From Botryllus schlosseri (lineage: Eukaryota): DNA of 64,000 nucleotides. Shown piece by piece: positions 47,960 to 63,630 of this stretch. The stretch is from NCBI GenBank assembly GCA_051294905.1, contig CM119372.1:5582001-5646000 (forward strand). The letters run 5' to 3'. The stretch's first letter is position 1; every line of letters begins with the position of its first letter. Below the pieces are notes generated by a model. It saw only the letters and a list, made by a program, of their open reading frames with translations. It made no database searches and was not told the DNA's origin. A program made the position numbers and the translations under genes.

Positions 47960-49560
47960 TAATCAGTTTGGTATTGGTCAGTCAGATAAGCATAGGCTAC
48001 TGGCATCGATTTTATGAATTGGATTCGTGTATATAGTAGCCTGTCTTAACATGTCGGATGATGTCATAAAACGAGTCTATATCGGAAAGGCATTGGTGAT
48101 AGACATCATTTTCGCAGTACATCGAGACGATGGCAAGTGCGACCAAGATAAAATTACAACAATAACGGAACCGTTGTATTCTTTATTACTTTTGGCATTG
48201 ACTATATACACGGAAACTTGATTAGATGGGTTTGTGCCACCTATATATAAGGTTCCATTTGAAACAAATGGTTGTTTAAAACACTTTGTTTAAACATGTT
48301 GTAAAAAAGTGTTGTAAACATAGGTCGTTGAATTTTTTTTTCGAGTTGTATAATTATGCCATAAGTGTGTAAATACTTTCCAAAACATATGTTGTAAGAG
48401 TCTACGGACGATTACCATCCGATATAGCCGGATATGGGATGGTTAGAACACGCGAAATAGTCGGTTCAACATCTATAGTATGTAGATATAGATCGCAAAC
48501 TGCTGCATGACGATGTAATCCTGGACTCCTGGTTAAAGATATTTTTGATCCGTCTGTGACAGTGGTTGGAAACCTATAACGGCAAAGAGCGATATTTATC
48601 CTATATTTTAAATTGTCAATGTCAATCCACTATGACGCCACAATTGAATATTCGTGACGTCATTGCTTAAAAAAAACATGTTTTAAACAAGGGCCTTGTC
48701 CTAAACATTTTTGTTTCGAATTGATTTTTGTTTTAAACACAACCCTACCTATATATATATGTCATTTACATTAGACACGCCGACACCAGCCACGGATGAG
48801 CGTTTTGCTCTGGCATCCTTACGCGGCACTTTGATATAAATTTGTTTGTAACTATGTTTTCACAGTATATGAGTTAATGCATGCATGTACGGACAACGGT
48901 ACACCATAGCCTACATATCGATGTTAGTGAAGCGAAAGTCGTGAAGTGGTGTTTAGAACCACTGCGATAATTCGTGGTTGTATCTTACGGCCGATCTTTC
49001 GAAATATAGTTGTCATTGGAAACGTGTAATATTCAACATTTCCAATTCATTTCATGCGATGATGACGGTAAGTTTCTTTTGCTCACAATGAAACATCCCT
49101 AAATGTTTCTCCATCAGTAAATACATGTATTGTATTGTATCATAGAAGATATGAATTAGGAACTGAAGCCAAAACTGTTGACTGGACAATATCTGCATTT
49201 GATTGCCTGCGTCATGAATTCCGTCGCCAGCAAAGCCGTTATCACAGCTATCATAATATTCCTACAACGTCACGTCCTTGCTCGAGGTCAGTGAAATGAT
49301 ATACATGAAATATATGTGTGAGGGATCGACATCACCAATCCGAGATCGAAAAACCTCAATACAAATCTCAGTCTTAGACCCCAGTCTTCAAGAAATTTGC
49401 CTGGCAAGAAGAGTCAATTCAGGCTGACCGTGAATGGCAGTAAATGTCCAATGGTCGTGGATCTTAGCTGCCGAGATTCAAAATCATGAATCGAGCTTCA
49501 ATCCAATTTGATACTTGAGTTAAACTGTCAAGGCTATAGTTTGTTTCAAATTGTTAGTAA
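47960..49560 (+). repeat. Segment duplicated at about 55965-57225, upstream of each Ig exon
   Basis: Shared blocks include ggcatcgattt, tgtcggatgatgt/tatcggacgatgt, gtaagtt(t/g)ctttt...cacaatgaa and tgttgactgga(c/t)aatatct. Confidence 0.75.
48248..48747 (+). mobile_element. hAT-like MITE, TAGGGTTGCATTT family
   Basis: Degenerate TIRs, TSD CCTATATA. Confidence 0.8.
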
Positions 49561-51100
49561 TCTATTAGTGGCTCTCAAGCGTTTTGACTTCGCGGCCTGG
49601 TAAAACTTCAAAACAGATGTTGCGGCCCGGTGAATCTTCAAAAATCAAAATTAATCTAATTTTTTTTGTTATGTTCGTGCATTGTACGTTGGTATCGTTT
49701 GTTTCTTATTTGCCTCGGATTAGTAATTACCACCAATCATTATTTCCTCGTGTGTCGTGCTTCGTATTTTTACCCTGTGTTCTGTTGTCTATTTGTTTTT
49801 CGTTGACCTGCACTCAGGATCGTGTTGTCTGTCTTGAAGTTATTCTGCTGATAATATACTGATTTCATATTGCAACCTCGTCGCATGAGTTATTGTTCAA
49901 ACACGATTAAGAGCATAACATTAATTATGACGAAGGTATTGGAAACTTCATATAATATTGCCTTTTCGATATTCGATATTTATACGCTGTTCCTGCAAGG
50001 CGAAGTTTTAGCGACTGTCATTGTGAATGTTCTGTTTCCTTTGGAAGAGATGCGACTTAGCTGTTTCTATAGCCTCTAATATACTGCTGCGTGTCCCATA
50101 ATTGTACTGTCGAAATTTATCGAAGTTTGTTTGAAAGTCTCCGCAGCTCTCACATTTGAATGGTCCGAAACGAGTTGTAAAAAGTTTCATACAACACTTG
50201 TACGATTGTGACGTTCGGCCAAATTAGCCAGTGAACTCTCTCTTACCACATTATGCAGAAATATGCGTTCTAAATTTCTAAATCTATTTAAAAGTTAATG
50301 TCTCATCTTTTAAAATTAGTGGACAAGTGTCCAATTCGTCCATTTTGGTGTTTCGATATGAGATTATAATAACATTGACAGTATATAACTCGCCACGGCC
50401 CATCGGTTGAGAACCACTGATCCATATGTCAGACACACATGTCACGGAAATGCTCAATCTCACATCCTAGCAGATGATATACTGCTCATTGAATCGTATA
50501 TATACGCAATGGGTTACTCCAGGGGTTATGTATTTTGACAGTTTACACCTCTACTTAACAGTTCTGAGGTAAACATGCTTCATTTTTATATTGATGACTT
50601 TGTGAGGTATAGGAAGTAGGTTTGGAATATATGTTCCCATCATGGTTTCGAGAACCACCCAGCACGACCTCCTCAGTTAAGAGCTAAGTACGCGACCTCG
50701 CGAACCAGGCTACGTTTGAAAACTACTTACTGAATACTTTTCAAATGTTTTTTGTCGACTTCAACTTGAAGTATATAGGACATCTCTTGGAGATTGCTAT
50801 CCTTATTCTTGAAATGGAGTAGACATTTGCAGCGTTATTAATAATTCTCTTTGCGTACCAGCGACGACTATAGTTTGACAATTTTAGGATACATGTTCAA
50901 TGGTGACATCGGCAGTATAGACTTTTCGTTTATCGATCAAGTTCTCTGTTATCAACGTAACATATTTTCGCGGACTTCTCGTATGATATAAACAGGGCCC
51001 TATGGCTGCATTGATCGCATTGGTGTATCTGATCTCAGTTTGGGAGACAACTGAATATATTCGAATTCGCTTGATATCATTACGCAATTAGAACTGCAAC

Positions 51101-51950
51101 TAGGGTTGCATTTACAACATATATTGTTCAAAAAACTTAAAACATGTTTTAAATGCCTTTAAAAAAGAAAAATCGTATTTTTCTTGCAAACGTTGTAGAA
51201 GTATGCCATAATTGTGCAAATACTTTCGAAAAAACATGTAGCGAAATTAGTGTGTGTTCACACCCAAGGGGCCGAAAAGGGTGGTACACGAAAACACAAC
51301 CTAATTCAGAATTTTATCTCGGTTATAAAGCGGTCTTATGCCCACGTGAATACCTTCCTCCTACGTCTTCAAGTGCATGCATAATTTGAATTAAAACGTT
51401 GCACTCGAATTGTACCGCGGTATAATTCAGAGGTAGGTTCTGATTTCGTGTTCCATATACATGTATATTCACAGCCGTATAATAGGGGTGGTACACGGGT
51501 GGAGCTGGAAATACACATATTTTTCGCTAATAGCGATAGGATCCTACGGACGAATTGCACGCAATATAGTCGACGTTTGCGATTAGGTGTGGCTGGAACC
51601 CTCGAACTTCTATGGTCGGTTCCACAGTTATAGCACGTATAAATAGATCATTGACACGGAATGGGTGTTCTGTTCATGACGACCGCCGACCGTAAAAATG
51701 CTGCATAACGATGTAGTCCCGGTTAATTATGTTTTCGGTCTGTTTATGACAGTGGTTGGAAGCTTTTTTCGTGGAAGGTGTCATATTTTCCCTACAATTT
51801 CAATTGCCAATGTCAATGCACTGTGGCGTCACAATTAAAGATTCGTGACGTCATGCCAAAAAAACAACAACAATAAAAACGTGTTTTAAACAATGGCGAT
51901 GCTTTGATCATGTTTGTCTTAAATTGATTTTCGTTTTGAATGCAATCCTA
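51101..51950 (+). mobile_element. hAT-like MITE, TAGGGTTGCATTT family
   Basis: TAGGGTTGCATT...AATGCAATCCTA, TSD ACTGCAAC. Ends 35 nt upstream of the Ig1 exon. Confidence 0.9.
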
Positions 51951-51985
51951 ACTGCAACTAACAATTGGCAATGTGTACTCAACAG

Positions 51986-52264
51986 ATGATCTTTCGTTTT
52001 CCGGTAACGATGACGATGGATGTAAAATTATCCCGCTGGGCACTAGAAGCGATGCTGAATGTGTATCACTATCAGCATATGATAAGGATTTAACGTGGTT
52101 GCACGACGGAAGGCCGGTGCCTAATCTTCCGTCAGTAGGCAAGCAACCTGTTCAACAAATGGGTGGTCGATTGCACTTTTTCACCTCCGCGACTGTTCAC
52201 GATTCTGGTGATTACTACTGCAGTTCTGGTCGAGACGAAAAACTGTTGCAAGTCTACATTGTAA
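51986..52264 (+). CDS. Immunoglobulin-domain exon Ig1
   Basis: cag|...|gtaagt, 279 nt, phase 1/1. The translation has the canonical Ig Cys (AECVS), Trp (LTWLHDG) and DSGDYYC (DxGxYxC) motif. Confidence 0.9.
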
Positions 52265-55200
52265 GTAAGTAAATAGAACAAACTCCCTTTTCTAGTTTAT
52301 AGAAATTTGGAATGACACACACCTTGGGCATTATAAACAATCAAGGTTATTTTTGATGACTTCCGGCTTTCGAACAATTTAGGAACATTTTCACTATTTC
52401 GACTGTCACCTACAGATGTGACCGAGAATACGGCAGAGGAATTGTGTAATACTGATCCATTGGAAACGTCTACTGGTGCCACCACTGCTATTTCGACATC
52501 CGCAGGTATTATTGTTTGAATTCATTATATAGGTCACGATGACAAATATCAGGCGTAGGCTACATATAGATGTACACGATGTGTGTGCGAATTGGGTAGT
52601 ATGGATGAGGAGGGGATGGGGGTCGGAGGTTGGTGCCGTGGTAGTGAACTGCCGCCAAAGTGTACACGAAAGGGACCATATTGAATGTCAATTTTACTCA
52701 AACTCTTGAATATATATATGTTGGGTTGTTAAAATACCGAATGTGTCATGAGTTGTCATTTCTGCAGTAGTTGATTGGACATTGTTCTAATTAGAGGGGG
52801 CAGGTTTGGATACCAACGACATGACGCTTTTCGCTATGTGGCTTACCGATAACCCGTGGTATATTCCTCATGTACAGTACACGCGCGAGACTAGTGCTAG
52901 ACATAGCGATGCGATCCTTGAAAGTTCCTGGTTCGTGTGAACACTTGTTTATCTACAGGGCAGTTTTTTAGTGTGACTTGACTTGATTCGAGTCACATTG
53001 CAAAAATGACTTGACTTGTCTTGACTCGACGCTTCCGAAATGTGGATTGAATTGTGACTCGGAGCAAAAATTACGAGTCAATTTCAAATCATCAAGTAAC
53101 GGCGTCGATAAAAATGGCTGATTTGCATATATTCGGATTGTTCGCGATACGCTGGTGTGACGTGTGATATGAGCAATCACTCAATGATTGTGCGTATTAC
53201 TGAGCCTCCATTTTTCTATCACAAATAAATTGACCGCAAACGAAGTGATCCGAGCTTACAGCTTACATGTCGTAAACTAGTAGTAAAGTAATCTTATGGC
53301 AAAGTATCCATCTCTGTTCTATAGATTGTAGGCGATATCCACTTGAACCAAACCTCTTGAATGATTTAAACCGTATTTTAATACTGTATGTAAGTTTATA
53401 CTCGTCGACCATCGGCGCAAGCTTAAATTGTATCTCAAATGGGTGCAGGTGGCTAGTGCATTGCATCATATCGATTCGTTTCAACTTTCTGAGGTTTCGT
53501 ATTCTATTCTCTATTTTGGCTGATAATTATAGACTGCGGCTATACAGTTACTTTTAGGTAGTTTAGCAATTCTACGTATGCGTGTACGATAACACGCCTT
53601 TTTGCATGTTTATTTAACTGTATATTCGTCTCTTCATTCAAAATAAATGGCAACTTTCTATAACAGCTATTAAAACGCAATGACGTAATATATGCCCCGT
53701 ACTGTGACAAATCAACTTGACTTGAATTGACTCGACTTGACTCGAGTCACTTTCAAAAATCGATTGACTTGACTTGTCAAAATGTGCAATGACTCGAGAT
53801 GACTCTTGACTCGAAGGTAGTGACTCGATCCCAACACTGCTAAAGGGTACTATGGGAAAACGAATTTGAACACGAGCATTTGACTTCACATGACGTCTCA
53901 TTGCTAATTTGAAACACCCTGCATACTTTGTTATGGCATTTCTAACGGTACCAGACGATAAGCATTATGAGTAATTAGGTATATTTGCGATGAATTCAAT
54001 CGAGTTGTTCAATAGCGCAGGCCTTCAAACAATTCAGGAACTTTGTTAACTTTGCTCACAGATATAGCCGAAAAAACGACGTTGGGTTTGCATACTTCTG
54101 ATCCCTTGGAAGCGTCTACCAGTTCCGCAACTGCTATTGCAACACCCGCAGGTATTATTGTATGTATTCAATAAATTAGTCACGATGATGAAGATGATAT
54201 AAGCTTAAATATATGGTTATAGATGGTTTCTATACTTGTATGTTTACGTGTGTGTGTTTGCGTGTGCTGTGTCGGTATACCACACAATATGCGAAATGGG
54301 ACATTATTGAAGACAAATATGAAATATTCCTTGATTGAACGCCATTTTTATTCTTACCGTCGACTATATATAAGTATAAGGATGTTATAAATGTCGATGA
54401 TGATATACCGAATTTAGTTCATTTATGATGTTCGTATTTAGGTATTCTATTTTTTTGAAATAATTCCTGACCTGCCAAAACGCTATAGTTAGCGGAACCG
54501 GCGAGAGGAAAATACAAAATTAAAGCGAATAAATAAATATAATAATAAGTTCAGTTGCGAGGTAGCTCTGAAAACTCAATAATTCCAGAGGAGGAAAATT
54601 GAAATGAATTACCAAAAACAAGTTAAAAAATCGCTATAAACAATGAAAATTTAATAATTTAACTCGAAATAAATGAACAGAATTTTCAAATTTCGGAGGG
54701 AAATTTTCACAATATTTGCTTCAACAGAAAAAACAAACAGGTCGTGCGCGTGGATAAACTCAAGTCAAAAACTTCTCGCTACATCAGCGGGCAGCATCAT
54801 GGACTCATTATATAGACTAGTGAAACGATATTAAAAACTGCTGAAAGGAAATGGCTAATTGTGAGGTCCAACAAAGTCAAGTACGTCATGATATCATCCA
54901 TTGAATTTCACTGTAATTCAACCTATAACAATCCAACTAATAACAGTCGCCGTGTATTTTCAAGTAGGATTGGTTATGTAATTGCGGATTATATGCTCTA
55001 GGACAGTGATCCTCAACCTTTCTGTCTTCGCGGATCACTTTGGACTGTCATGGACCCCAACACACAATTTTAGTTCAAATCTAGCTCTATTATCGTGCAA
55101 CCGTCATCTGTCTTGTGTAATTATTATTTTAAAGCGAATTCTGTAGCTGCGTGGCCGTGTCTTGAGAATTTTTGCCGTCGATTTGATACGAACGAATGCC

Positions 55201-58200
55201 GAAAATACATTTCCACAAAGTTAGGTGATGGCGAATACACGTAACTCTTCCGACGACTCCTTTGAGTATGATCGCAACATATATGGCACCAATAAAACGC
55301 CTAGCCTAATAATTTCTATATCTATAGCAGCTCATATCGAAGGTATTCCGGAATAATGGCTATCGATATCACAGGAGAATATGGATTTCTGCCAAAAGGT
55401 TTTTCCCAATACCCGAAAAACTTCTCTAAACAGTGATATGTTTGAATAAGTAGGCTATTGGCAATTTAGGAAAAAAAATTCGCTCGGAAGAATATTTCAT
55501 CTCCGACGACCAGTCTGTTTATGACCAAGTTTCAGCAGTTATGAAGCGAAAGTGCTTCGTGACTTCTCTAATTTAAAATAAAATACGTATTAGTTTACCA
55601 ACCATTTTGCAAATTTGAAGGTTTCGTGGCCCCCCTGAAAATGCTTCGCGGACCCCGGCTGAGACGACTGCTCTAGGAAAACTCTAGAACAGTCGTAAGT
55701 TCTTAACCAGGGCACGCCTCTCAGAATTCGAGGAGCACCAGAGATTCATTTACTTCCTGGTTTTACCATTGTTAATAAAGTAGCACATCATCATCATTGC
55801 ATAATGGTTAGGAACACAGTTGTGATATCACCTTACTAATTGGCATCGTCACTAGCTGACGCAACCACCGCAAGTTACTTACACGGAGAATTATCAAACG
55901 GCTGTTCTTTGTTCAATTATTGGTTTGAAATACAACATTGACCGACATTGCGTATATGATCTTAATTACTTGGCAATTGGTTAGTCAGAAAGTTCGGCAT
56001 CGATTTTAGAATATCATTTGCGGTACAGCCTATATAGGGCTATCTTACAATATCGGACGATGTTTTAAAATAAGAATATATTGGAAAGACATTAATTTGT
56101 GACTATCATCATTTGCGCATTATCGGTATGTGCGACACAGATATCAGTACGGCAATCAACGGCAACAGCAGATATAAGTACGACGTTCAATACACCAATC
56201 AACGGCACTTTTGCCTTTTTTTGAAGTTCCTATTGACTGTGGAAAACGTTGTATGATTGGTTTACGTTAACTGTATATGTCATTTTCATTCAGCAAGCCT
56301 GTCACCACTCTATAACGAAGTCTTTTACTGTAGCACATTTACGCAAGGATTTATAGCAAATTTACTTGTAACAAGGTTCTGATAGTTTATATAGTTTATT
56401 TTATATATAATACTTTATGTATGGTAATTCATACTTTTCATATCGAAATGAATGTCCGGCTCAGTGTCTAACAAAATGTGTGCCTTGAATCATGGCATTT
56501 TTATCGTTTTGGAATATTGCTAAACATAGTCCAGTTGTTGTGCATCGCTGCCATGCCATGCGCTTCGAGGTGCGTCTGAAATCAATTCCATATAACTGAG
56601 AAGGACACGTTGGCTTTTAAATTTTTAATATATTAACGAAACGTAACTCGTGGTTGCATTTTATTTATCGTAGGTCAGCAAAGCGTTTTGAAATATCTTG
56701 CTAAACAAGAAATAATCTTCCGAAATATAATTTTTCTTTTGCAAATATATGCATTTTATTTCATGGAAAGCTGATAGTAAGTTGCTTTTGTTCACAATGA
56801 AGCCTACTGCAGATTCTAACCATCCGTAAATACATACATAGAGGATATGAATGTGGAATCGCAACCAACGTTGTTGACTGGATAATATCTACATTTGATC
56901 ATCTGTACCATGAGGCCCTCCGCCAGCAACACTGTATTTGCTATCGTAACAATCCTATCACGACATGTCCTTGCTCAAGGTTAGCAATATATATATAGCC
57001 TACAATAAACATGAGACGGATCGATGGAGTACCAATCCGAAATATAAGAATCCAAATATAATTGCAGTCTTCTAGAACGCTAGCTGGCTCATTTGTAATC
57101 ACAATGAACACATAATGGTACTGCTCCTTTGTTGTAGATTTGGTCGGCGCGAGATCTGGAGTACTTACATTTGAGATCAAGAATTGAGCTTGTAGAAAAG
57201 TCAATAACCGCGGCTATAGTCTGTTGCTCATCTACAGGGCGCGTTCAGACACGCAATTCGTACCTTCTGACACTCTCATCTTCATCGAACTACAGATAAG
57301 ATATTCGTCATCGAATCCAATGTATATATAATAGGCTTGTTCAAAAATAACTCATTTTTCCGGTTTCCGGGGATTCACTGACCAAATTTGGCTCGATCCC
57401 AACTGGTAGATGAGAATATACAGGAGTTTACATATTTTGAAGTTATTATAAAATATAATAAAGATTTTTTTATAATGACTTCAAAACCCCATGATGCTGG
57501 TAAGTTGTCTAAAAGAACGATGCTTACCAATTTTTGCTCACTTCCAACCGGTAGAGCCTAAGTTATTGCATTTGACAATTTTGAATTTGCAAAAATATCC
57601 TGGACGGTGGGCAATCGCAGAATTTTGAATGAAAAACTCAAATAAAGTCGCTTCCACGGGTTGGAATTGCGTCAAATCTGTTTTGCACCGTTATTTAGAC
57701 AACTCGACAATTTCTTGGCGTTAACAGTGAAATTTGAAAAGAAAATTCAAAATCGGTCAAAATGAAATAAAAAGTTATAAACTCCTGTGCGTTCAAATTT
57801 ACCGGCACTATGGCTATTACTCCAAAATTAAAAAAAAGATGCAACTGCTCCTTCGGGTGTAAGCATTACCGGTTATTTGCGACAGAAAAGGAGAGGCTAA
57901 GGCCAATGTTCCCTCTAATTTTTCAGGAGTCTGCGCAAACACGCCAACTCACTGCGCAGGCCCTCGGACAACAGTGCGCAACCACCCCCCAATAGGGTGA
58001 TAAACCCAACTACTGGGGGGCTTCGCCCCCCAGACCCCCCACACGGCTCTAGGCTTCTTCCGGTACCTATCATGTGCATTGGGTGCCGATCTAGTAGTAG
58101 CGTCCCTAAACGCGCGAAGCGCAAAAAAAATTCTATAATTTATTATTGCATCGGCCAACATAACCGGGAATTGCATATATGTTGCTATCAATTTTTATCC

Positions 58201-61200
58201 TCTCCCTGCTCACATAATCAGATTTACCGGTAGAGCTGATCCAGTGAGGTGTGTTGGAATAGATAGGCCCTCTAAATAATAATAAAACATCTTCGGACGT
58301 ACCCGTTGATATAATGACTTCGTTACATGATGCTATTTCGTGACCCCCTATCTGCTATGTCAAAAGATATTTAAATCGCCATAACTTACTAAAGTAAAAT
58401 ACGTACACGATTTCAACTTGGTATTTCTTAACTGGAAAATAATGTTCCCTCGATATGGCATTTGTCTTGTTGTGGGACTCGGATCGCCAGGACGGGAACA
58501 TTCGGCGCCAGCCATTTAGGCGCCCATGGACATGGACATGGACATGGACAATTACACAAATATTTGTATATATTGAAGTTTTCGGTCAGCACCGAAGCAG
58601 TCTTTTTCGCCCAACGTTTTCTCGCTGCTGATCGTTCTGGCGCACTTCTTGGATTCGCATGTTACACAGCCTTTAATTTCATATGTCTTGGCGCGTCATG
58701 GTGCGGTAATGGCCGACGCCCAACTGCCCATTTCTGTATATCATGCCTAATTTTTTGGGGAAAGGTTACCCAATAATCAGATATCTGACAATAATAAAAC
58801 GCGCTTAGCGCGAAAAAAAAAATCCTGAAAAATTTCAAAAAATACATCATGATTTATGTTAATTCTCGAAATAATCCAATCGGAGGGTTTGCGGTGCGAA
58901 AGTTACGGTCCTGAGTAAATCTTACGCAATGTTCATGCCACGCGAAGAAGACTATCATTTGTTAATTTCTCGCAGATTACCTTCGAGCTAGCCTATTGTT
59001 GTTTAAAACTTTGTTAAACCATGTTATTTCGCCATTCCCAGAAAATAATGCGCTATAGAAATGATATCAGTATCGTTCACGTGTACCAGGCCATACTAAA
59101 ATAATATCTTCCGTGAGGAGCGGGTGATTATGAACTGTAATTTCTTCACGGAGCGCAATAGTTACCTTCGCAGGGCGCACTTGTACCTCGGTTTCAGACT
59201 TCAGTGATAACACTATTTGGCCCTGGCAATGTTCCATCTTAATACTCACGAATCTGCGCGCCTGCGTGGTCCATTGGACAACAGTGCGCAACAACTTAAA
59301 AAAAAAACATCATTTCGGATTTTTTTGTGCGCATCGTAGATTTTCTGTGCGCAGAGACCGTTTCAGCACTGCGCATTTGCGCACGTGCGCAGCTTAGAGG
59401 GAACATTGGCTAAGGCCCTAACTACATCTTTATACCCCTGACGACGTAAGATGCTATGGTAGAGTTGCTTTGGAATGAGTCAATATCCATTTTACTATAT
59501 TCATTCCCTCTGCTGATATTATCTTTTCACGAATTTATATATGTTTTGTTTTATATTTCTACATATAAATATATCTGTTTGCAACGAACAACACTTTCAT
59601 ATTCAAATTCTGTACCACATGGAACCTATATATCTTTTTGTTGAATATCTACTACGTCATACATCTATACTACAACTCCTTCACTTAATTACATCTTACC
59701 TTTTATCCACTACTTTTCCAGATTTTATGTTACATTATATCTACCCAAAATACCAATCTTTGGATTTTTGTCGGTAGGGTTAAGCCCACCTATGACAGCT
59801 TACGGAGGAAGATCCGTTGGCTAAAACACCAAATGTCTTGTTTATCGCTATATCTTAACGACATATCTACAATTAAAACTCCAACAAGAACTTTGGTGGA
59901 TCCATCGCGCTGTCTCTATACTGCGCCCTTACGGGCGCAGCTCATAGTTTTTGTGGCTATGCTGCCTTCGGCAGCTTATCACTGAGCCAAATTGGATGCA
60001 CAGCGTTTAATTAATCAAGTTAACAATTTAATCAGTAAATCTCTGAAATCTAGAAAAAAAGTTATTTTTTGACAACACTAATCTTCTTTAACATATACAT
60101 AATAGTAGGCTACATTATATTATGTTAAAGATATAGGGGTTTTATTCTAGCAATAACACATTTACTCGCAAACAATAGATTTGGCGACAATACCATGATT
60201 GGTCAATTGCATTCAGTTTGTTAGAAATGTGCTGGATAATCCAAGCGTTTTTCCATTTACTTGGACTTACTTTACGGGCCGGATGAAGCCTTCTGACGGA
60301 CCGGACGCTGCCTGCGAGTCGTATATTTGACACCCCTGATCTAATATTTATAATTACTACGCTAGAGTTAGGACACTACCTACTGCTAAATGTTTCAGTG
60401 GTGATGTAATGCATTTCTTTGTTCGATGGAGTTCTGTGCTATAAATCAACGCAATGTATGCTTGGAATTAACGCGTTTGGTATAACTTATTACCTTGAAT
60501 ACATTTGCAGTCGTTCGATATAAACAGATCAGAACTACAGCTAAAAAATGACAACGCGTTCCCGATTGCAGGTAGGGTTGCATTTAAAATAAAGATCAAT
60601 TTAAACAAACCTGTTCAAAACATGGCCCTTGCTTAAAACATGTTTTTTCTAGCCATGACGTCACCAATCTTTAAATGTGACGTCATATTGAATTGGTATT
60701 GAAAATTAAAAATACAGGATGAATATGGCTTCTTCGACGAAAATGACTTCCGACCACAATCATAAACAGACCAAAAATATCCTTAACCAGGACTATCGTT
60801 ATGCAGCATTTTTATGGTCATCATCAGAACATCCATTCCTTACTAATTATTATATATAACTACTTGCTATAACTGTCGAACCAACGACGATTTCGAGGGT
60901 TCCAGCCCCTCCATATCGTATACGTCGACTATATTGGGTGCAAATCGTCCATAGGCTCATACTGCATGTTTTCAAAAAGGATTTGCACAATATGGCAACA
61001 CAATAATTTCATATGCACAATAACTATAGAACGTCTGAAGAGAAAACACCTTTTTTTTAAAAAGGCATTTGTTTAAAACATTGTTTAATCAGACATGTTT
61101 TAAAAACAAATTGTTTTAAAACACCGTTTGTTTTAAATGTAACCCTAATTACAGGGGATCTTTCGTTCAACGGGGATGATGGTAATGGATGTAAAACCAT

Positions 61201-63630
61201 TCCTCTCGGCACTGGCGGCACGGTGGGTTGTCAGTCATCATCAAACCAAGTTTTAACCTGGTGGCTTGACGGAACGCAGGTGTCTGAGTATAATACAGCA
61301 GAACCTATTAGACAAATAAACGGACAATTATACATTTACGGCTACGCGACTGTGGAAGATTCTGGCGATTACTACTGCAAGTCCCAAAATGAGGAGAAAT
61401 TATTGAAAGTCTGGATTGTAGGTAAGTGAAGAACGTTCGGTCTGGTTTTGCTGAGGCAACCAACTCGACGGGGAATTGTATGGTATATTTCCTAATTTTT
61501 ATTTATTTTGCCAAATTTCACTGTTTTTTGTGTAAGTTTCATGATGACGAACATATATTACAATCATTGCGCTAGCGCGAACCTGATAAGAACTAAAGTT
61601 GCGCTTCACTGACCAAACCAACTCACTTTTATTGTCGTCATGAGATTTCGAACATTAGAAGCAATTGTGTATATTTAAGATGAATTCGAATGATTGAAGA
61701 ACAATTTCATCATATTCATTTTCGTTTGCAGATATGTCTGATAGCACCACAGTTGATTTGTGTGTTACTGATCCTTCGACACCCACACGTCCCACAGGTA
61801 TTATTGCATATTAAGGCAGTCGCGGTGATATGGTGATATGGTGAATCACGACAAAATTCAAGTGAAAAGTGTGTAAATCAGGAGTCGAACGAAAGTAATA
61901 ACCTTTTTTTAGACAACTCCTCTAATTTCCAAGCAAAAATATCAAATTCCGTTGTCTTGATCAGCTGACTTTTCTGAATTAGTTAAAGTGTCCCCCTTTC
62001 CCGATTACAAAATATGGTTACCTTGCAACAACTGACGATAACTTTCATACATTTCGCAGACGACAGCGTCACTTCTGGGACTTCAGAAGAATCAGATATA
62101 GGTATGATCAAAACCAGCTATCATGTGCTACATCGAAAAGGTGCAACATGCGTAATTTTGTAGGCAATGAACAGGACAATGAATTTTTATGTATTCATCA
62201 GTGTTGGGATGACTCGAGTCATGACTTGACTCGAGTCACACTCGAGTCACCTTTTTCGTATGACTTGACTTGACTCGAGTCACTTTGTCAAAATGACTTG
62301 ACTTGACTTGACTCGGCGTATCAGAAATGTGGATTGACTCGTGACTCGAAGCAAAAATCACGAGTCAATTTCACGTCATTAAGCACTCGATGTCGATAAA
62401 AATCACTGTATCTTGCAATCGGATTGTTCGCAAAACGCTAGTGTAACCCGTGAGATCGACCAATCATTCAATGATCGTGCGTTTTACTGAGCCTCCATTG
62501 TTCTCTCACAAATAAATTGACCGCTTACGAAGTGATCGAAGCTTACAGCTTACGCTATCGTAAACTAGTATTGTAATGTATTTTAATAGAAAAATGTCTA
62601 TTACTGTTCTCTGTACCTGAACCAAACCTCTTTCTTGAAATTAAATTCGAAGATAGTTTATATAGTCCTCGACCATTGGCGCAGGCTCGAATTGTATCAT
62701 ATTCATTTGTAAATGTGTCATGTATTGCATCTTATCAATTCGTTTCTCTATTCTCTATATTGGCTGGTAATTATATACTGAGGCTTTGCCGTTATACTTG
62801 CGTAGTTCAGCATTTCTACGTATATGTAAGCGATACAAGCGCCGTCTTACGTGTATATTTACCTTCATATTCGTTCATCGGTTCAAAATCAATGACCAGT
62901 TAATCTGTATTTCAGACAGCTAGCAAAATGCAATGGCGTAGGCATTCGGAAAATGCAACTTGACTTGAAATGTGACTTGACTCGTGACTTGACTTGACTT
63001 GACTCGACTTGACTCGAGTCACCTTCGAAAATCGATTGACTTGACTTGACTCGAGTCAAAATGTGCAATGACTCGAAATGACTCGTAACTCGAAGGTAGT
63101 GACTTGATCCCAACACTGGTATTCATCGCTAGCTTCACGTAGAAATAATACCTTCTGAAATTGATTTTGTGACGACGATGAAACACAAAACTGTAGTCTC
63201 CAACAACTGACTATAACTTTCATATATTTCGCAAACGAAAACGACACATCTGGAACTTCTGGAGAAACAAATATAGGTATGATAGAAACCGGATATCACA
63301 TGTTACATCGAAAAGGTGCAACATAGAATAATGAGTGGCGCATCGAGTAAAAAACACGTAGCATCCTATAATGAACAACATTCCTATCAATCGAGAAATT
63401 CGAATCATATGTAGTTCGTCGTCATTCAATTGACATACATTCCAATTGTATTTTCAGTTGTAATCATAGTTCCGGTGATATTGGTCGCGCTTCTGGTGGC
63501 ATTGCTGGTTTTCTTATATTTCCGGTAATGTATAAATGTCCTGTCGCTAAGTTACGACATGTGTGACGACACTTTCATTTTACAGACGCCGCTCTCTCGG
63601 TGAAGAAGTAACAAGTAGTGCGGGTGAAAA
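51986..63630 (+). CDS. Receptor copy B (partial, spliced): Ig - stalk - stalk - Ig - stalk - stalk - TM - start of tail
   Basis: Phase-1 exons: 51986-52264 (Ig1), 52416-52505 (NVTENTAEELCNTDPLETSTGATTAISTSA), 54062-54151 (DIAEKTTLGLHTSDPLEASTSSATAIATPA), 61155-61421 (Ig2), 61732-61797 (DMSDSTTVDLCVTDPSTPTRPT), 62060-62101 (DDSVTSGTSEESDI). Then 63458-63524 (TM VVIIVPVILVALLVALLVFLYFR) and 63586-63630 (RRSLGEEVTSSAGE). The tail should continue beyond 64000 because intron 63631-64000 matches 26563-26940. No confident start exon was found. It could be two gene units rather than one. Confidence 0.75.
52961..53839 (-). mobile_element. hAT-like MITE, GAGTCAAGTC family, one end degraded
   Basis: Reverse-complement copy; TSD CTACAGGG/CTAAAGGG (7/8). 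Confidence 0.8.
55004..55670. mobile_element. hAT (Charlie-type) MITE
   Basis: CAGTGATCCTCAAC...GCTGAGACGACTG, TSD CTCTAGGA. Confidence 0.8.
57332..60080. mobile_element. TIR element hosting a nested hAT
   Basis: TAGGCTTGTTCAAAAATAAC...GTTATTTTTTGACAACACTA imperfect TIRs; a related start lies at about 11728. No TSD was seen. Confidence 0.5.
57904..59408. mobile_element. hAT-like element
   Basis: TIR CAATGTTCCCTCTAA...TTAGAGGGAACATTG, TSD GCTAAGGC. Confidence 0.9.
60573..61147 (-). mobile_element. hAT-like MITE, TAGGGTTGCATTT family, inserted at the Ig2 splice acceptor
   Basis: TAGGGTTGCATTTAAAA...TTTTAAATGTAACCCTA, TSD ATTGCAGG/ATTACAGG (7/8). Opposite orientation to 51101-51950. Confidence 0.9.
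61155..61421 (+). CDS. Immunoglobulin-domain exon Ig2
   Basis: cag|...|gtaagt, 267 nt, phase 1/1. GDLSFNGDDGNGCKTIPLGTGGTVGCQSSSNQVLTWWLDG...ATVEDSGDYYCKSQNEEKLLKVWIV; paralogous to Ig1. Confidence 0.9.
62199..63118 (-). mobile_element. hAT-like MITE, GAGTCAAGTC family
   Basis: TIR CAGTGTTGGGAT...ATCCCAACACTG, TSD GTATTCAT. Confidence 0.9.
63235..63276 (+). pseudogene. Duplicated 42-nt stalk exon with a dead acceptor (pseudo-exon)
   Basis: Copy of exons 62060-62101 and 25070-25111 (DENDTSGTSGETNI, donor gtatga intact). The upstream sequence is tttcgcaa instead of tttcgcag. Confidence 0.7.

Follow-up and report, generated by a model that had tools for sequence, protein, structure and literature searches.

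Organisation of gene B

The window, i.e. the whole analysed stretch of 64,000 nucleotides of Botryllus schlosseri DNA, contains a gene termed here gene B. Its five exons (512 nt) are open, all of their GT/AG ends are intact, and together they encode an open chain of 170 residues from the start to the membrane segment. The exons and the first coding intron are as follows:

56910..56979, + strand, signal-peptide coding exon (MRPSASN...VLAQ/G), with the donor AAG|GTTAGC at 56980
56980..61154, + strand, first coding intron, 4175 nt, phase 1, at an ancestral position
61155..61421, + strand, Ig exon, 267 nt, phase 1-1, open, its 3' end spliced to 61732
61732..61797, + strand, stalk exon, spliced in contigs
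62060..62101, + strand, stalk exon, included in the contig of run X7 and skipped in that of X8 (in-frame alternative splicing)
63458..63524, + strand, transmembrane exon, based on a contig joint (X8) and an open frame

Four exons paralogous to the signal-peptide exon are present in the same cluster on C2. The Ig exon gave a weak match to Pfam Ig_3 (E=2e-4), below the curated cut-off. The preliminary description of this DNA had labelled it Ig2; because a signal-peptide exon of its own lies upstream at 56910-56979, however, it is read here as the only Ig exon of a separate gene unit. Another Ig exon of the window is located at 51986-52264, with a separate signal-peptide exon near 49215-49287. 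The paralogous unit at 49215-54152 consists of a signal peptide, an Ig and two stalk exons, and no nucleotide match to a transmembrane exon was found in it before the next signal-peptide exon; its product may be secreted, truncated or spliced into the downstream exons of gene B. A duplicate of the 62060 stalk exon, with the acceptor CAA in place of CAG, is found at 63232-63277 and is absent from both contigs.

In neutral simulations, an intact gene B survived with a probability of 0.0004 at 10% divergence, 0.018 at 5% and 0.084 at 3%. The lineage-private changes of the Ig exon (23 non-synonymous and 14 synonymous) correspond to an omega of 0.5 (p=0.034), which reflects selection that may predate the insertion described below. 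The pairwise omega of this exon was 0.39-0.75 against four gap-free paralogs and 0.37-0.67 among those paralogs. Protein searches recovered no full-length or N-terminally extended product of gene B, and the search of representative proteins returned one 95-aa family member, uninformative on splicing.

The insertion and the duplicated acceptor

The 3' end of the first coding intron is occupied by a transposable element between two copies of its target duplication (TSD):

60565..60572, + strand, upstream TSD ATTGCAGG, with the ancestral acceptor AG at 60570-71 and the G that opens a new GTAGGG donor
60573..61147, no strand assigned, non-autonomous hAT-type (hATm-like) MITE, 575 bp, at a distance of 10.4% to the majority sequence of 20 others
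61148..61155, + strand, downstream TSD ATTACAGG, with the acceptor AG at 61153-54 adjoining the Ig exon

The element starts with TAGGGTTGCATTTAAA from 60573, and its inverted partner TTTAAATGTAACCCTA (reverse complement TAGGGTTACATTTAAA) closes at 61147; the two 8-bp TSD copies are identical at seven of eight positions. A hAT-type insertion that duplicated the acceptor and created CAG|GTAGGG had been proposed in the preliminary description, and both the insertion (575 bp, inverted ends, 8-bp TSD) and the duplication (an AG in each TSD copy) are confirmed. Equally exact is its statement that 60572-61154 is a GT...AG segment whose removal restores the original junction: the segment of 583 nt (the element plus one TSD) has GT at its start and AG at its end, and the empty site is recovered exactly once it is deleted. 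The donor at 60572 is workable, as had been claimed, with matches to MAG|GTRAGT at 7/9 positions both as CAG|GTAGGG and as the regenerated AAG|GTAGGG, on a par with the five donors of gene B itself (6-8/9). Within the 4175-nt intron, no YAGGT other than CAG|GTAGGG at 60572 occurs on the + strand (the 64-kb window holds 75). In sequence, this site matches a YAG|GT with a usable regenerated donor, as in recursive sites. The AG|GT and the exact restoration add no information beyond the element and its TSD, since any copy with a TSD ending in AGG has both: every end of the family begins with T, so any such TSD gives AG|GTAGGG.

Size, age and target preference of the MITE family

The 12-base end of the family has 4958 exact matches in the genome versus 28 for the reversed control, so the element and its TSD are not due to chance. 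The best other copies, among the 40 of 5020 candidates scored, are 74-82% identical to the element. Its divergence of about 10% lies within the 8-12% found for the other copies themselves and indicates that it is old, this figure being a distance to the family majority that may overstate the age of the insertion. An 8-bp TSD with at most one mismatch is present at 22 other copies, which show a loose, symmetric preference for T at position 3 and A at position 6; the target in gene B fits this preference and ranks in the top 3% of the 8-mers of the window.

The element has the traits of a non-autonomous hAT MITE, being short, non-coding, bounded by terminal inverted repeats (TIR), present in high copy number and flanked by an 8-bp TSD. 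According to PMC6004678, hATm elements have the termini TAGGGTG...CACCCTA and an 8-bp TSD. The gene B element agrees with these termini at 6/7 bases, sharing TAGGGT...ACCCTA and the TSD length, but its seventh base is T where hATm has the G of TAGGGTG. A search for an autonomous partner found no TIR or element match in any of the best 30 of 150 scored PF05699 loci (1.5-kb flanks).

Two further copies of the family are found in the window. An independent copy of 850 bp at 51093-51958, in the opposite orientation and with the TSD ACTGCAAC, is inserted some 30 nt upstream of the acceptor of the paralogous Ig exon, and the branch-like CTAAC at -25 stayed with that acceptor. The third copy, at 48240-48755, is 500 bp long and has the TSD CCTATATA. 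A different hAT-type MITE with the ends CAGTGTTGGGAT and the TSD GTATTCAT is located at 62200-63119, in a downstream intron of gene B, and has several relatives in the window.

YAGG precedes the TIR at 130 of the 4958 family ends, compared with 29 expected from base composition or 56 from the TSD matrix of the 22 copies, an excess explained only in part by copies inside duplicated repeats (L050/L051, L060-L062). On a rough count that rests on an assumed 120,000-200,000 splice sites, 0.2-0.8 acceptor hits in the register of gene B and 0.3-1.0 donor hits are expected per genome; one of each is therefore what chance gives.

The intron predates the element

Seven paralogous Ig exons were found, and in all seven the CAG| acceptor is at the same codon; moreover, the last 40 intron bases of these paralogs align with 60535-60571. 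The intron of gene B is therefore ancestral, the element moved its old end 583 nt upstream and, as read from the paralogs, the insertion made no new intron. The segment 60511-60571 translates openly into the Ig exon, and we considered whether the element had interrupted a coding exon here; the segment aligns with the paralogous intron ends, however, and this reading was rejected. Relative to the seven aligned intron ends, gene B has three additional bases at 60564-60571, just before the acceptor CAG, possibly an older footprint.

The 107 distinct YAG|GTAGGG sites include one at an acceptor (gene B), one at a donor and none inside a recognisable coding exon. The exon test used flanking open frames (37 and 30 scanned, thresholds 25-40 codons) and is blind to short exons, and Pfam missed a sulfotransferase-like exon recognised by eye. 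At 53 of the 107 sites a partner end and a recognisable TSD could be paired, and 43 of these 53 keep the AG in the 3' TSD.

A de novo intron was reportedly formed by maize Ds (Giroux 1994). That splice sites can derive from a TSD is a principle long known, and both maize Ds and the transposon-insertion model of intron gain at AGGT are treated in PMC3443670. In that model, as in gene B, both splice sites of the insert, the donor AG|GT and the acceptor AG|G, come from a TSD with AG|G, and exact excision is possible; in contrast, its target is exonic and an intron is gained, whereas the gene B element hit an acceptor already in place and the TIR contributes the T of the donor. The preliminary description had also called the unit introner-like. 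In terms of the definitions in PMC9860276 and PMC11282704, an intron at a position that had none before and many similar introns inside exons were looked for; the intron pre-exists in 7/7 paralogs, and 0/107 AG|GT sites lie in a recognisable coding exon. On these comparisons the introner label fails on what was testable. Introners whose two splice sites derive, in full or in part, from the TSD are described in PMC9860276 and PMC12130899, and the likeness to gene B extends to the non-autonomous TIR element and to an mRNA of unchanged length if it is excised, but introners are many new introns inside exons, whereas the MITE family described here is intergenic or intronic. The datasets of PMC12130899 contain introner lists, a tunicate included, which could bear on whether the family is already catalogued.

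Splice signals at the competing acceptors

The sequence elements that may influence the choice of acceptor are listed below:

60533..60571, + strand, possible in-frame 39-nt cryptic exon (old intron end), hypothetical, closed by the TSD/TIR donor
60540..60544, + strand, CTAAA, decayed homologue of the YTAAC branch-like motif by paralog comparison, upstream copy in gene B
61063..61064, + strand, internal AG behind CCTTTTTTTT (ten pyrimidines), candidate alternative acceptor
61138..61149, + strand, branch-like GTAAC (A at -13) and CTAAT (A at -7) before the downstream acceptor

In six of the seven paralogs, YTAAC is present with its A at exactly -25. In gene B, CTAAC has changed to CTAAA and the 60572 site is one base short of Y5+N0-4YAGGT; the strong, conserved upstream 3' splice signals of recursive sites were not found at this site. 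Before the downstream acceptor at 61154 there is no YTRAY at the distance seen in the paralogs, which is weak evidence either way, as the spliced acceptor at 61732 has no perfect YTRAY either. GTAAC at -13 is private to the gene B element (1/21 copies). CTAAT at -7 is formed by the TIR end and the TSD and lies below the range of 10-60 nt quoted for human branch points in PMC10156609; CTAATT is given in PMC2483917 as the commonest branch-like motif in Ciona.

The internal AG at 61063-64 leads in frame into the Ig exon and meets no stop on the way, so that 90 nt would encode 30 aa derived from the transposon. It is present in 15/21 family copies and is brought into frame by two insertions private to the gene B element, an arrangement seen in 1/13 other copies and in 4% of neutral simulations; its context is AAG, and three other AGs lie within 40 nt upstream. 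The preliminary description held that the insertion is tolerated either by recursive splicing or by use of the downstream AG. Tolerance is apparent from the intact frame, the omega of 0.5 and the transcription of the gene, but the two routes are not a complete list, as the internal AG and the 39-nt exon at 60533-60571 are also productive on paper.

Contigs and the second haplotype

The GT..AG joint 61421>61732 is present in contigs of runs X7 and X8, from two studies; the X7 contig continues to 62060, and the X8 contig goes straight to the transmembrane exon. These runs are not on record as RNA; their contigs, at depth 4-7, represent paths through a graph rather than molecules and can merge pre-mRNA with mRNA. 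The 439-letter contig of X8 is unspliced through 61125-61154 (30 letters verified; nine more fall outside the stretch, one below the bridging rule), while that of X7 ends at 61152. Neither of these two spliced contigs, which reach the acceptor, contains a joint of exon 1 to 61155 or to 61065. Four situations agree with this pattern and are not told apart by it: the intron is removed slowly, splicing goes to the internal AG, the path represents a recursive intermediate, or the product is dead. The gene was covered by contigs; the 6% of raw-read run X23 that was read has no depth on its unique exons and nothing of run X14 aligned, so that neither run speaks for or against any of these.

The element is also present in run X5, a DNA-like run from another sample and study, where the 5' junction is bridged by 59 letters and the 3' junction is touched by 24. 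The X5 haplotype differs by a few percent from the window sequence. It lacks about 2.2 kb at 57806-59987, one contig joining 57805 to 59988, which is a presence/absence polymorphism in the intron of gene B.

Productive splicing of gene B is likely, as the gene is intact, it is transcribed, its downstream exons are spliced, and a second haplotype shares the element, which is about 10% diverged.

Probable route of splicing past the element

The insertion in gene B is real and mostly ordinary. A hATm-like MITE landed on the existing acceptor of the first coding intron of a single-Ig receptor gene and duplicated this acceptor. For the working mRNA, the signal-peptide exon is probably joined in a single step to one of the AGs at the element's 3' side, without a new intron and without need for recursion. 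The AG of the TSD at 61154 would be the likelier site, and we prefer it tentatively, as its chance falls somewhat short of even; the internal AG at 61064 may be used instead, in which case 30 residues encoded by the transposon would follow the signal peptide, but it is a rather unlikely choice. The displaced upstream acceptor, its branch-point signal lost, would be mostly ignored, and the new acceptor would be weak, hence the MITE end would often be left on transcripts. Most likely, and with the same degree of confidence as one-step splicing, of which it forms part, the removal is inefficient while the displaced acceptor decays. Two private changes, GTAAC at -13 and the in-frame internal AG, speak for one-step splicing, both having been noticed post hoc; the former and the frame-setting insertions fit either downstream AG.

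In recursive splicing, exon 1 would be joined first to the ancestral AG at 60571, with AAG|GTAGGG regenerated, and 60572-61154 would be removed second. The geometry for this is exact, with a regenerated donor of 7/9 at the only YAGGT of the intron, and the X8 path, which combines the MITE end with spliced exons, fits an intermediate. The intron of 4.2 kb is long enough, and an objection based on its length was dropped, because lariat-defined human recursive sites lie in introns with a median of 3.4 kb (PMC10156609). Nevertheless, we regard recursion as quite improbable. The site resembles the recursive sites and ratchet points of PMC6110457 and PMC10156609 in that YAG|GT is juxtaposed inside an intron, but its branch signal is decayed and not conserved, unlike fly sites, whose conservation is about twice that of control AGGT (PMC6110457). 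It is also located 583 nt from the exon, whereas nearly all fly segments exceed 1 kb; Y5+N0-4YAGGT is missed by one base, and no intermediate was seen in the contigs examined. Moreover, recursion solves nothing that direct splicing cannot, because its second step still requires the acceptor at 61154.

It is unlikely, too, that gene B is a crippled copy that gives little protein, with intron 1 mostly retained, the upstream AG used without re-splicing, or transcripts that start inside the MITE. This would agree with the unjoined exon 1 in both spliced contigs, with the MITE sequence in X8 and with the poor branch signal downstream. The product of the upstream AG stops 22 codons into the element, so the earlier statement that use of this AG alone gives a dead transcript is correct. 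However, the frame and the splice dinucleotides are intact despite an old insertion, the omega is 0.5 and the element is common to two diverged haplotypes. A true gain of an intron by exonisation, with 60533-60571 as a 39-nt in-frame exon and 60572-61154 as an ordinary intron, is very unlikely. Although this exon is open and closed by a 7/9 donor, and the X7 contig ends at 61152, where TTGCAG and TTACAG paths would diverge, its acceptor ATAAACAGATCAG has no pyrimidine tract and competes with an out-of-frame AG 5 nt upstream; 60571>61155 is absent among the joints listed, a comparison dominated by repeats in which joints of depth about 4 may have escaped, and no loose end matching it was found in the X7 and X8 contigs. 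One-step splicing to one of the two AGs downstream remains the preferred reading.

With splicing to the internal AG, the Ig domain of the receptor would be preceded by 30 transposon-derived residues, three of them cysteines; this would be an ordinary exonisation, but one that visibly alters the protein.

A mirror case at a splice donor

Copies of the same MITE family are located exactly on the splice donor of a gene cluster on C4 (5760109, 5845781, 7167894 and 7531538, - strand; L130-L133). To judge from its motifs, the cluster looks carbohydrate-sulfotransferase-like. Pfam and PDB searches gave no name for the gene, and the atlas pointed to a carbohydrate-sulfotransferase cluster (0.89, a lead only). 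At all four loci, the TSD ATCTCAGG is present on both sides of the element, whose end rebuilds the donor (AG|GTAGGG or AG|GTAGGA) beside the exon, and the old GTCAT donor, displaced 500-606 nt downstream, is now an AG|GT point. In six paralogs (L134-L137, L139 and L140) the site is empty and GT is found at the corresponding position. The four elements are in the same orientation and 75-95% similar, which is what a single insertion passed on by duplication would give.

Gene B illustrates, as a clean natural example, how a DNA transposon can persist at a splice junction by virtue of its TSD, and it comes with empty-site paralogs as controls and with this mirror case at a donor. It is quite improbable that the TAGGG end and the target preference of the hATm-like family gave birth de novo to working recursive sites, at 60572 and at the C4 donor. 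If they did, the empty-site paralogs at both places would allow a direct test of how recursive sites originate, and recursion in gene B, if demonstrated, would be a case in which the birth of such a site from a transposon is dated. The literature searches found no paper linking recursive splicing with transposon target duplication, apart from one unrelated listing. Among the four C4 genes, L130 and L131 carry one stop each, and both exons are open in L132 and L133.
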